Shown: one piece after another, positions 48,701 through 54,700 of the stretch
Position numbering within the stretch: position 1 is the first letter of the stretch
How the letters are laid out: each line of letters begins with the position of its first letter
Source: Escherichia coli
GTDB lineage: Bacteria; Pseudomonadota; Gammaproteobacteria; Enterobacterales; Enterobacteriaceae
NCBI RefSeq assembly: GCF_041886205.1
Contig: NZ_CP169029.1
DNA length: 64,000 bases
Direction: 5' to 3' (one strand)
Made by a program: the position numbers

Positions 48701-51700
48701 GGCTCATGCTGCCAGTGAATCATATCGTCGCTGGTGGCATGTCCCCAGTGCATTGGTCCCCAGTGTTCGCTCATCGGGTGATGTTGATAAAACGCGTGAT
48801 AACGATCGTTAAACCAGATCAGGCCGTTTGGATCGTTCATCCATCCGGCAGGAGGCGCGAGGTGAAAATGGGGATAGAAAGTGTTACCCCGGTGCTCATG
48901 AAGTTTTGCTAGTGCGTTTTGCGCCGCATGCAATCGAGTTTGCGTCATTTTAATCATCCAGGTTAAGCAAATTTGGTGAATTGTTAACGTTAACTTTTAT
49001 AAAAATAAAGTCCCTTACTTTCATAAATGCGATAAACATCACAAATGTTAACGTTAACTATGACGTTTTGTGATCGAATATGCATGTTTTAGTAAATCCA
49101 TGACGATTTTGCGAAAAAGAGGTTTATCACTATGCGTAAGTCAGATGAATTTAAGGGAAAAAAATGTCAGCCAAAGTATGGGTTTTAGGGGATGCGGTCG
49201 TAGATCTCTTGCCAGAATCAGACGGGCGGCTACTGCCTTGTCCTGGCGGCGCGCCAGCTAACGTTGCGGTGGGAATCGCCAGATTAGGCGGAATAAGTGG
49301 GTTTATAGGTCGGGTCGGTGATGATCCTTTTGGGGCGTTAATGCAAAGAACGCTGCTAACTGAGGGAGTCGATATCACGTATCTGAAGCAAGATGAATGG
49401 CACCGGACATCCACGGTGCTTGTCGATCTGAACGATCAAGGGGAACGTTCATTTACGTTTATGGTCCGCCCCAGTGCCGATCTTTTTTTAGAGACGACAG
49501 ACTTGCCCTGCTGGCGACATGGCGAATGGTTACATCTCTGTTCAATTGCGTTGTCTGCCGAGCCTTCGCGTACCAGCGCATTTACTGCGATGACGGCGAT
49601 CCGGCATGCCGGAGGTTTTGTCAGCTTCGATCCTAATATTCGTGAAGATCTATGGCAAGACGAGCATTTGCTCCGCTTGTGTTTGCGGCAGGCGCTACAA
49701 CTGGCGGATGTCGTCAAGCTCTCGGAAGAAGAATGGCGACTTATCAGTGGAAAAACACAGAACGATCGGGATATATGCGCCCTGGCAAAAGAGTATGAGA
49801 TCGCCATGCTGTTGGTGACTAAAGGTGCAGAAGGTGTGGTGGTCTGTTATCGAGGACAAGTTCACCATTTTGCTGGAATGTCTGTGAATTGTGTCGATAG
49901 CACGGGGGCGGGAGATGCGTTCGTTGCCGGGTTACTCACAGGTCTGTCCTCTACGGGATTATCTACAGATGAGAGAGAAATGCGACGAATTATCGATCTC
50001 GCTCAACGTTGCGGAGCGCTTGCAGTAACGGCGAAAGGGGCAATGACAGCGCTGCCATGTCGACAAGAACTGGAATAGTGAGAAGTAAACGGCGAAGTCG
50101 CTCTTATCTCTAAATAGGACGTGAATTTTTTAACGACAGGCAGGTAATTATGGCACTGAATATTCCATTCAGAAATGCGTACTATCGTTTTGCATCCAGT
50201 TACTCATTTCTCTTTTTTATTTCCTGGTCGCTGTGGTGGTCGTTATACGCTATTTGGCTGAAAGGACATCTAGGGTTGACAGGGACGGAATTAGGTACAC
50301 TTTATTCGGTCAACCAGTTTACCAGCATTCTATTTATGATGTTCTACGGCATCGTTCAGGATAAACTCGGTCTGAAGAAACCGCTCATCTGGTGTATGAG
50401 TTTCATCCTGGTCTTGACCGGACCGTTTATGATTTACGTTTATGAACCGTTACTGCAAAGCAATTTTTCTGTAGGTCTAATTCTGGGGGCGCTCTTTTTT
50501 GGCCTGGGGTATCTGGCGGGATGCGGTTTGCTTGACAGCTTCACCGAAAAAATGGCGCGAAATTTTCATTTCGAATATGGAACAGCGCGCGCCTGGGGAT
50601 CTTTTGGCTATGCTATTGGCGCGTTCTTTGCCGGCATATTTTTTAGTATCAGTCCCCATATCAACTTCTGGTTGGTCTCGCTATTTGGCGCTGTATTTAT
50701 GATGATCAACATGTGTTTTAAAGATAAGGATCACCAGTGCGTAGCGGCGGATGCGGGAGGGGTAAAAAAAGAGGATTTTATCGCAGTTTTCAAGGATCGA
50801 AACTTCTGGGTTTTCGTCATATTTATTGTGGGGACGTGGTCTTTCTATAACATTTTTGATCAACAACTTTTTCCTGTCTTTTATGCAGGTTTATTCGAAT
50901 CACACGATGTAGGAACGCGCCTGTATGGTTATCTCAACTCATTCCAGGTGGTACTCGAAGCGCTATGCATGGCGATTATTCCTTTCTTTGTGAATCGGGT
51001 AGGGCCAAAAAATGCATTACTTATCGGTGTTGTGATTATGGCGTTGCGTATCCTTTCCTGCGCGCTGTTCGTTAACCCCTGGATTATTTCATTAGTGAAG
51101 CTGTTACATGCCATTGAGGTTCCACTTTGTGTCATATCCGTCTTCAAATACAGCGTGGCAAACTTTGATAAGCGCCTGTCGTCGACGATCTTTCTGATTG
51201 GTTTTCAAATTGCCAGTTCGCTTGGGATTGTGCTGCTTTCAACGCCGACTGGGATACTCTTTGACCACGCAGGCTACCAGACAGTTTTCTTCGCAATTTC
51301 GGGTATTGTCTGCCTGATGTTGCTATTTGGCATTTTCTTCCTGAGTAAAAAACGCGAGCAAATAGTTATGGAAACGCCTGTACCTTCAGCAATATAGACG
51401 TAAACTTTTCCGGTTGTTGTCGATATCTCCCTATCCCTCAACCGGAAAATAATAATACTAAAGTGCTTAGCCCTGCTAATAATCACCTAATCCAAACGCC
51501 TCATTCATGTTCTGGTACAGTCGCTCAAATGTACTTCAGATGCGCGGTTCGCTGATTTCCAGGACATTGTCGTCATTCAGCGACCTGTCCCGTGTATCAC
51601 GGTCCTGCGAATTCATCAAGGAATGCATTGCGGAGTGAAGTATCGAGTCACGCCATATTTCGCTATCAGGATTCTGTGTGATGGTTACATCGCCCGGCCC

Positions 51701-54700
51701 AGGGCTGTTTAGTCATCAGCGCTTTCTGACAGTGCTGAGATTTCAACCTGTTGCAGTAAAAATGAGTAGATATAAGGCAAGTGTGCTGCCAAACCCATCT
51801 TTTACGGGGTGAAGGTAGATTTCGTATGAAGGGTATTCGCTATTTCACTGAAGCCTGTTCCGTTCTTCCATAGTTCAAAAACAGAGGCTTTTTCCTCTGC
51901 TGTAAATGTTCGTCTCATTCAAAAAACCTCTGCAACCCCATGTTTTCACATAACTGTTGCGTTGACCAATTGAATCTACAACGGCTTTTTTTAATATGTC
52001 CCGTTCGTCGGTAACCCGCTTCAGCTCTTTCTGGAGACGGCGGATCTCGGCCTGAGCATCTGACTGTTCTTTATTAGTGGAAGAATCCGGACCGTACTTC
52101 TTTATCCAGGAGTAAAGGCTGTGGGTGGTGATATCGAGACGTGTTGCAACGCTGGCAACAGAATAACCGCGATCAACAACCTGTTTGACTGCTTCAATTT
52201 TAAACTCTTCGGGATAACGCTTACCGCTCATGGGCACCTCTCTTTAAGTCATCTTAAATGACTCTGAGGTGTCTATTAAACCTGTGGCGATTCATTCGTC
52301 TTGTTTATCAGGTTATTGATGATATGTTAATTATTGCGGTAGTCGCAGTAGGTAAACGTGAACGTAGCAACGTTTATCATCTCGCTAGTGAGCGGATGAA
52401 ATAATATCCCTGTCAGCACTCTTTTTTATCTGCTGCCGTTTTTTCCGGTGATTTTTTTCTGCATGCAGAAAAAAGCCTGCCCGGAGGGCAGGCATGAAAG
52501 ACAATCGCACAGTTAGTGTTGAAATTAATGATATCACGCATTATACCCGGTGGATACACAAACCATCCCATGTAAATGCACTGGCATCCTAATCTACGTC
52601 TGATAACAACTGCAATGGCTGGACCTGTGATTTAAGAGAAAGTTATTATGTTTATTGAATATAACCGAAGTGATAAATAAAAGTATTATCACCTGTAATA
52701 TTTATGCTTATTGCGTGGTTTTATCTGGTTATATAAAGCACAGATGTTCTCATTATTTTCTGAAAAATAACCATATGGATCGATTTCCCCCACCCAGCCG
52801 AAGCGGTTCGGCTCGTTCGGCGTGTCGTCGACACTGAAGCGCTTATCCACTTCGTTCCAGCGGTAAGAGTCGTCGCTGTCGCTGACGAATGCCATCGGGT
52901 CGCTAAACAGCGTGATCCGCCATGCGATCAAAAAGCGTAAGTGTTTCCGACAGACGAGCCGGTGAAAAAAGTGGTGTGTCTGGCAATACAGGCATCGTCC
53001 CCGAAATGGACGATGCCGTTGAAGGACTGGGGTATGGCAATAAGCCGCTTTATTATCGGATTCAGTGACCGCCTGGACGGTTACTTTTGAGAAAAGGCAT
53101 TTACACACAATCCTAAACAGACTCCTATATTTCAGATTTTGTTATCAACGCATTTCAAATCTCTTAGAAATCATTACTGTCGTCATATTTTCCGAGGCAG
53201 CTCACCACCTAACCATGTCTTATCAACAATATTTTGTGAAGGATATTTATAATGTAAAGACACATCAGAAACGATATTTCACACTCAACATGGCAGATGT
53301 ATTATGGTATCCATGTTCTCCAAGTTGAATGCCTGCATCAGCCCGGAATGCTACTTCTGGTGTTATCATTCCCACAACACCACCATTTATTTCTCCGATA
53401 TCACGCGCACCATCCTGGTATATACTTACACCATTCATACTGGTGCCGAAAACACGACTATTGTGCAACCAGTGTGCCTCCACAAATGGTCTGAACGGAA
53501 CCGCATACCGCGTATTTTTACCGTTTTTGCTGGTAAGCCATGTTCTTGCTCCCAGGCGGGTGAGAATATTTCCGTTACCGGTATTTTCAATACTGGTTCC
53601 GTTACTTTCATGATATTTGTCTGATTTTACATTCATCCGGACAACCTGAAGCTGCGGCTGAACATACCATTCATGACTTCCCTTGTAATTGTCGGTAAAC
53701 TCTCCAGCCTTCCATGAATATCCTGCTTCCAGAGATACCGTAAACCCTTTTGACTTCCATGACTCAGCAGGCAGCCGTTCTCCATTTATATGATTATCAA
53801 ACCAGCTGTATTGCAGCCAGCTATCAAGATAAGAACCATTGTGTGTTTCATCATTGGCATACCATGTTGCATAAAGACCCGCTGTGTATCCATTCATTCT
53901 TCCTTCCGAATGGTATCCGGTGCTCAGGGCATTCGTACTGTTATTATTATGACCATAGCCAGCCATCATACCTGTATGCCAGCGATCGGTAGCATTCAGG
54001 CTCCACTGAGCTATATCTCCCCCTATTAACACAACGTAGCTATTCCCCCGGGTTCTCAGCTGACTACTGTTGTCACGCCAGCGATTATGTTTTCCTTTAT
54101 TATACATCCAGATACCTGCTTCATTTTCTTCTCCTGTCATGTGGCTGATATACAACTCCTGTCCCTGTCGTTCATACAGATTCGTTACAAACAGATTATT
54201 TGCAGCAGCAATACTGGCAACATAGCTACCTGCCTCAGGACGCAAATTATTATCATGGTTTTCCGGTACAGCTTCAGGTTGTGGTACAGGAATGTCTTTT
54301 CTGCTAATCAGATACCAGTTAGTGCTGTTAATCCCCTGACCACGTTTCAGTATGTAATCATAAGCTCCGGCTGTAATACGTTCCGTCTGAATGAATTCAG
54401 CATTATCAGCATTGCCACTGACGTGAATCACTTCAATCCCATTAAGTGTCTCTGCACCAGTACCACCGGCCTGAGTAACAGCGACACGGGTACGGCCACT
54501 GGCATTACCTTTAATCACCAGACGATCTGTTTTCGAATTGTCACCACCTGTTTCTGTCTGGAGGAGAATAAGTCCATTTCTGCCAGTGTAATTCCCTCCG
54601 ACAGTCAGTATATTACCCGGCATATATGTAGTGAGATCGACTATACCACTATTGCTCAGATTTCCTGCAACGCCCCCAAACCCGGAGAGTTTGCCCTGCT

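Follow-up and report, generated by a model that had tools for sequence, protein, structure and literature searches.

According to the literature, the csc sucrose genes of Escherichia coli take the place of dsdCX next to argW, a hot spot of recombination (PMC4366372, citing Jahreis 2002 and Moritz & Welch 2006). The DNA analysed here, called the window, is a stretch of 64,000 nucleotides (nt) of an E. coli chromosome (contig NZ_CP169029.1). Its gene order, yfdC-argW-integrase...island...cscBKAR-dsdX'-dsdA, agrees with that published for the argW-dsdCXA / csc variable region (PMC4366372), and the locus is an argW genomic island adjoining the csc genes. The island of the window differs in that its csc-proximal end and the distal argW repeat are gone. 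We analyzed the stretch between cscB and an autotransporter gene, where a preliminary description had placed a decayed insertion sequence (IS) of the IS3 family in otherwise unassigned DNA. This stretch is very probably a non-functional scar, made by one mobile-element event after another at the island's csc-proximal end. Each of its junctions is seen directly in the sequence, and the order of the events is inferred from strain comparison. The region is an IS graveyard of an ordinary, already known kind, with nothing functional or new apparent. Its significance is mostly one of annotation: an island end shaped by the insertion of one IS into another and by a single strain-specific deletion at a microhomology.

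The IS fragments have described counterparts in K-12, where two loci were compared (segment L009, 11932-12426 and 2207-4191). In prophage CP4-6, a 312-bp homologue annotated 'insertion sequence:ISX' (pseudogene insX, b4505) lies beside IS30B (insI2, b4708). It is the same 5' fragment of an IS3-family element (nt 1-314) with the same end position against IS30, and IS30 is also a mere fragment there, insX and insI2 both being annotated as pseudogenes. The two loci differ in the end of IS30 that is left: in K-12 its right end (nt 1041-1221) abuts ISX in the opposite orientation and is cut by IS1B, whereas in the window its left end (nt 1-147) is cut by a deletion. The outer flank of ISX differs as well: K-12 has yagB where the window has a relE fragment. 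In the second locus, IS911A::IS30A (insN / insI1), IS30 interrupts the orfA of an IS3-family element at homologous 'KKA' codons. The host is here IS911 and is complete on both sides, whereas that part is deleted in the window.

Many complete genomes carry the DNA of the window at 99.9% identity. One of them, strain 6EVA, provided the annotation guide (PGAP annotation of the same DNA), and 5,426 complete E. coli genomes were used for the genome survey.

An IS3-family fragment interrupted by IS30

The features from the end of cscB to the outer end of the IS3-family fragment are distributed as follows (ORF, open reading frame; IRL, left inverted repeat).

51398-51836: conserved flank downstream of cscB, 436-439 of about 454 bp retained
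51494-51667 (approximate), minus strand: DUF4942 gene fragment with an in-frame stop
51802-51918, minus strand: ORF from the IS30 transposase start, beginning MRRTFTAEEKASVFELWKNGTGFSEIAN
51834-51836: deletion junction, TAT, a 3-bp microhomology that the csc flank shares with IS30 nt 145-147
51834-51980, minus strand: left end of IS30, nt 1-147 of 1,221, with the IRL and the first 29 transposase codons (ATG at 51918)
51875-52237, minus strand: chimeric ORF, ISX OrfA codons 1-83 followed by 35-37 codons of IS30 IRL read-through; 120 amino acids (aa) from a GTG, 118 aa from the ATG at 52231
51981: single T between the ISX fragment and the IS30 IRL
51982-52294, minus strand: IS3-family element (ISX / ISEhe3-like), nt 1-313 of 1,229 bp, IRL TGAATCGCCACAGG... 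from 52294, orfA codons 1-83 from the ATG at 52231

An intact copy of the IS3-family element is found in strain C10 between casB and casA (NZ_CP195940.1:2813732-2814960; segment L003, 1585-2813). This reference copy measures 1,229 bp, has TG...CA ends with both inverted repeats, is bordered by a 3-bp direct repeat (ATT/ATT), and bears the label 'IS3 family transposase, programmed frameshift'. Judged by alignment to it, the window holds a fragment of an IS3-family member, about a quarter of the element and not a complete one: the full 313 nt align with 312 identities (99.7%, blastn). The OrfA part carries the IS3-type transposase helix-turn-helix (HTH) domain HTH_Tnp_1 at aa 5-73 (Pfam, E=2e-19, 70 bits against a cut-off of 24.1). 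Beyond nt 313 homology ends. When the whole element was compared with the window by blastn, only nt 1-313 and a weak cross-match to a separate IS3 were returned, so that nt 314-1229, with the frameshift region, OrfB and its DDE (rve) domain, and the right inverted repeat, are absent from the window. The preliminary description was right in stating that no OrfB follows.

That description had the frame degenerating after OrfA. At 51980/51981 we observed instead an abrupt switch to the left inverted repeat of IS30 (TGTAGATTCAATTGGTCAACGC...; TGTAGATTCAATTGGTCAACGCAACAG). The DNA at 51834-51980 has the same sequence as the first 147 nt of the full IS30 in 6EVA, which is annotated 'IS30-like element IS30 family transposase' and is 99.7% identical to K-12 IS30A. 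A full-length IS30 occupies the matching position in 6EVA, wlxctx60 and WP4-S18-ESBL-08. The window retains the 26-bp IRL and the transposase start at nt 63; the complete transposase, of which 29 codons are left, the right inverted repeat and the 2-bp target duplication are missing, nt 148-1221 being deleted. The left end of IS30 abuts ISX nt 313/314 and so ends OrfA at codon 83; the last 37 codons of the 120-aa ORF (51875-51981) are read-through into IS30. Of the IS3-family OrfA first delimited at 51875-52237, the ORF and its HTH domain therefore hold, and the extent of IS3-family DNA has to be moved to 51982-52294.

The single mismatch in 313 nt and the sharp end of homology indicate that the fragment was truncated, not decayed. 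A lone IS3-family element eroded in place by point mutations and frameshifts down to the HTH part of OrfA would account for an OrfA-like ORF without OrfB, but no diverged orfB-like sequence follows the fragment, and a 100%-identical IS30 left end takes over exactly where homology stops. With the identity to the intact copy, these base-level junctions rule out mutational decay, which we consider to have practically no chance of being correct. Truncation by IS30, with loss of the rest through a deletion, is the reading retained below.

K-12 ISX is 96.8% identical both to the intact copy and to the window fragment. A 92-aa OrfA identical to that of the intact element was labelled 'ISEhe3 orfA' by one depositor. 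ISEhe3 belongs to the IS51 group of the IS3 family, was described from Pantoea agglomerans pPATH, and has TG ends, 3-4 bp direct repeats and two ORFs (PMC10425158), traits which fit the intact C10 copy. The name ISEhe3 is provisional for this element, since it comes from that one depositor's label and not from the ISfinder reference AF327445.

At least 1,000 contigs have a recorded protein identical to the 118-aa chimera, which indicates that the ISX::IS30 junction is old and widespread. OrfA-type proteins of the IS3 family, such as IS911 OrfA, repress in trans. The chimera might accordingly be imagined as a working HTH protein, retained for binding the inverted repeats of ISX/ISEhe3-like copies and repressing them: its ORF is intact with the native start region and the IRL upstream, its first 83 codons are also open in the K-12 copy, and the identical protein is frequent. 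Island inheritance would, however, explain this wide occurrence. Over the 83 OrfA codons the window and K-12 differ by 3 synonymous and 3 non-synonymous changes, with no sign of purifying selection, and the K-12 curators marked insX as a pseudogene. Moreover, there would be little to regulate: the ISX fragment has a median of 1 place per genome among the E. coli genomes that carry it, and most carriers are without an intact ISX. A trans-acting role of the chimera would be possible in principle but is unsupported, and we regard it as improbable.

The use of the same ISX position in K-12 and in the window concerns IS30 itself. Since the left end of IS30 is at ISX in the window and the right end in K-12, IS30 has occupied this one site in either orientation. 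The ISX site reaches 14/24 in self-complementarity, which places it in the top 16 of about 1,190 positions that were scored across the element, and it has 18/28 bases in common with the IS911 site. IS30 is known to prefer nearly palindromic hot spots (PMC9333248), and the self-complementarity of the ISX site and its likeness to the IS911 site fit this preference. With rather less than even confidence, we propose a natural IS30 hot spot in the orfA of IS3-family elements that would have been struck independently in both orientations; IS30 would then recurrently inactivate such elements just upstream of their frameshift window.

A probable strain-specific deletion joining IS30 to the csc flank

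At 51834-51836 the conserved csc flank passes directly into the interior of IS30. The junction reads, at base level, ...GAAGGGTAT joined to TCGCTATTTC..., and its 31-mer is TTTCGTATGAAGGGTATTCGCTATTTCACTG. A three-way alignment of the window with the csc side and the IS30 side of 6EVA extends the match around the TAT to 6/7 over AGGGTAT/AGGATAT. By blastn, window positions 44300-51836 and 51830-62649 are colinear with two 6EVA segments lying 17.64 kb apart, with a 7-bp overlap; the matching interval measures 5.6 kb in wlxctx60. Relative to 6EVA, the window is missing the rest of IS30, the 3' part of IS911, a Lon-like (S16 family) protease fragment, zinc-ribbon genes, Hha, IS2, Ag43, yeeS/T/U, the 19-bp distal repeat of the argW 3' end (attR) and an integrase Arm-domain remnant.

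We read this junction as the probable product of illegitimate, microhomology-mediated recombination. The IS30-side breakpoint lies 147 nt inside the element and no inverted repeat is present at the joint, which argues against a transpositional IS30 deletion. IS30 does generate deletions, and those with endpoints away from its inverted repeats are described as non-transpositional (PMC9333248). An enzyme could in theory have made this one, either the IS30 transposase by intramolecular transposition or an integrase acting at the old argW-like attachment (att) site that ends the csc flank; the csc-side breakpoint is only 1 bp from that att sequence as it stands in other strains. However, transpositional deletions of IS30 begin at the tip of the inverted repeat, the IS30 breakpoint sequence is unlike the att core beyond AGG-TAT, the att copy is degenerate in 6EVA, the closest relative, and the breakpoints are unique with nothing but microhomology in common. 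IS30-transposase or integrase authorship was rejected on the internal position of the breakpoint and the lack of att similarity, and is very unlikely.

The junction is spanned in none of the 5,426 complete genomes (0/5,426), and the 38-aa fusion ORF that it creates between IS30 and the flank is not on record. As IS30 is multi-copy, a contig mis-join at this repeat could produce such a singular sequence. Mis-joins at repeats normally meet at a repeat boundary, whereas here the csc flank, which is unique DNA, meets IS30 at a 3-bp microhomology 147 nt into the repeat, and the sequence around the junction is otherwise 99.9-100% colinear with relatives. We give an assembly artefact a correspondingly small chance. 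Microhomology-mediated deletion would have taken away the distal argW repeat and the 5.6-17.6 kb of cargo present in the interval of relatives, and its junction could serve as a lineage marker.

On the csc side, 51398-51836 falls within the DNA that the preliminary description called unassigned. This flank is covered over at least 80% in 2,623/5,426 complete genomes, about half, as a single chromosomal copy. It is colinear over about 454 bp in front of three different neighbours: an integrase remnant in 6EVA, a recombinase/prophage in O157:H7, and torI with a P22-like prophage in ECONIH6. Being conserved whatever the neighbour, it belongs to the backbone of csc-positive strains and not to the island. 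The end of the flank is marked in ECONIH6 and O157:H7 by a copy of the argW 3' end, TGGTGTCCCCTGCAG (segments L005 and L006, 6440-6460); this copy is degenerate in 6EVA. In the window, IS30 nt 147 is fused to the flank 15-18 bp before the flank's end.

Pfam searches on the small ORFs of 51398-51840 gave no domain until the stop-containing minus-strand frame was used, which matches DUF4942 (E=3.5e-9, profile positions 5-62 of 190). At the nucleotide level, 51493-51694 is 72-76% identical to intact DUF4942 genes, and PGAP marks a DUF4942 fragment here in O157:H7 and wlxctx60. We take the fragment for a probable fossil of an older CP4-44-like island, from its distal end. Together with the argW 3'-end copy of the flank, it suggests that csc adjoins the fossil end of an earlier argW island. 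Another origin considered for the flank was the nearby integrase pseudogene. The island integrase, used as a tblastn query, matched the Arm-domain remnant of 6EVA and nothing in the flank part of the window, and this origin was rejected; nearly all of the integrase remnant falls in the deleted DNA.

The argW 3' end (14 bp) occurs once in the window, at argW, whereas 6EVA has the 19-bp repeat. Since attR is absent, what remains of the island, from the integrase to the IS30 fragment, cannot excise precisely by att x att recombination. From the strains compared, the csc-proximal half of the island appears to be repeatedly eroded in different lineages. The interiors of the islands of 6EVA (segment L002, 10822-28464) and wlxctx60 (L010) differ by 12 kb; of the two, 6EVA alone has Hha, IS2, a GTPase gene and Ag43.

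The relE module and a proposed history

Outside the left inverted repeat of ISX, the sequence up to the autotransporter gene is made of the following fragments.

52295-52404, plus strand: relE-family toxin gene reduced to its 3' end, with the final 36 of 95 codons and the stop, translation ...RLVYQVIDDMLIIAVVAVGKRERSNVYHLASERMK before the stop; adjoins the ISX left inverted repeat (52294)
52405-52744: AT-rich spacer, about 340 bp, running from the relE stop to the PhoX fragment
52475-52493, minus strand: terminator-like GC-rich hairpin with a T-run (consensus scan), within the spacer
52745-52885, minus strand: internal fragment of a PhoX-type alkaline phosphatase gene
52884-53125, plus strand: 3'-end fragment of an IS1414-like (IS256-family) element

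The relE fragment is recognized by Pfam (ParE_toxin, E=0.004) and by PGAP ('RelE family toxin, missing N-terminus'). Neither a full-length toxin of about 95 aa nor an upstream antitoxin gene is found in the window: 36 codons are left, without yefM. In the same context, plasmid pEC96-130kb has an intact yefM-relE pair (segment L007, 4575-5110). Window position 52295 corresponds to 5001 of this segment, which puts the ISX junction at about codon 60 of relE. On the plasmid, the PhoX and transposase fragments known from the window come after yefM-relE, and after them a shorter autotransporter gene, at 96-97% identity (L007, 4575-7826). As it is found on E. coli plasmids too, this module has moved between plasmids and the argW island.

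The PhoX fragment matches the Pfam PhoX family (E=0.004) and is annotated by PGAP in 6EVA, pEC96 and WP4-S18 as 'alkaline phosphatase, missing N- and C-terminus'. The IS1414-like fragment is about 90-91% identical at the nucleotide level to genes labelled 'IS256-like element IS1414 family transposase'. What is left is a 3'-terminal piece of about 240 bp, without the transposase gene and both ends that define an IS256-family element, and Pfam detected no domain in it. The ISX, IS30 and IS1414-like fragments each have one end and no DDE domain, and are thus unable to transpose. A distant-homology search with 52405-52790 brought up nothing but further copies of this module. With a permissive threshold, Rfam gave two chance-level matches (mir-36 and IS009) over 51300-53300, both far below their gathering scores. 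The DNA between cscB and the autotransporter gene, at first called unassigned, is therefore mostly assignable, to the csc flank with DUF4942, IS30, relE, PhoX and the IS1414-like element; the label still applies to 52405-52744. The preliminary description had overlooked the 147-bp IS30 fragment, the truncation of relE at 52294, and the PhoX and IS1414-like fragments.

The junctions can be arranged in a history of four steps. The starting module would have consisted of yefM-relE, the PhoX fragment, the IS1414 fragment and the autotransporter gene, the plasmid version still having yefM-relE intact. In a second step, an ISX/ISEhe3-like element of 1,229 bp would have been placed inside relE at about codon 60. 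IS30 would then have entered the orfA of ISX at nt 313/314, ending OrfA after codon 83 and creating the chimeric read-through ORF of 118 aa. In 6EVA, WP4-S18 and wlxctx60, the far side of IS30 is the 3' part of IS911, and the right IS30-IS911 junction of these relatives is identical to that of K-12 IS30A and IS911A, including the AC target base pair. The identity of this junction suggests a later recombination between the IS30 in ISX and an IS30 in IS911. Lastly, in the lineage of the window, an illegitimate deletion at the 3-bp microhomology would have removed IS30 nt 148-1221 and the island DNA up to the csc flank, attR included.

Several points weigh against this scheme. The order of events is deduced through other strains and was not observed; no strain is known with the exact ancestral configuration of the window, and the island interior is variable among relatives. 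As the junction at 51834-51836 is seen solely in this window, an assembly error is conceivable. Since the window lacks both the rest of relE and the right-hand end of ISX, the relE junction could be an IS-adjacent deletion and not a simple insertion. A further loose end is the single T at 51981, visible when the window, the intact element and 6EVA are aligned: it may be a variant of ISX nt 314, where the intact copy reads C, or else a base of the junction. K-12 has ISX nt 1-314 at the corresponding position.

Neighbouring genes and the other IS3-family elements

The window has, in order, cscK (49164-50078), cscB, the scar region, the autotransporter gene, an IS2-like remnant, IS3, a P4-type integrase gene and argW. 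The features concerned are the following.

50150-51397, plus strand: cscB, left border of the scar, a 415-aa ORF; sucrose/oligosaccharide transporter of the major facilitator superfamily, the same DNA being so annotated in 6EVA and wlxctx60
53265-56762, minus strand: autotransporter gene, 1,165 aa
57009-57409, minus strand: IS2-like (IS3-family) remnant of the 3' part of orfB
57728-58985, plus strand: intact IS3, 1,258 bp, with imperfect terminal inverted repeats and both orfA and orfB ORFs
61737-61811: argW, tRNA-Arg(CCT), beyond the P4-type integrase gene

The IS2-like remnant, first reported at 57003-57480, was recovered at 57009-57409 with 71% nucleotide identity to IS2 (407 aligned positions, E=2e-50). 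PGAP describes it as 'integrase core domain-containing protein, internal stop, missing N-terminus'. Both remnants of the preliminary description, this one and the ISX fragment, thus have clear IS homologues. The intact IS3 was likewise found as announced, and PGAP agrees in 6EVA ('IS3-like element IS3 family transposase, programmed frameshift'). With the ISX/ISEhe3-like, IS2-like and IS3 elements, the count of at least three IS3-family elements in the argW island stands. IS3 is flanked by CAG and ATT, without a 3-bp target duplication; the missing duplication suggests a possible rearrangement at one of its ends. A short ORF of the PapB/FocB regulator family (58952-59107, minus strand) overlaps the right end of IS3.

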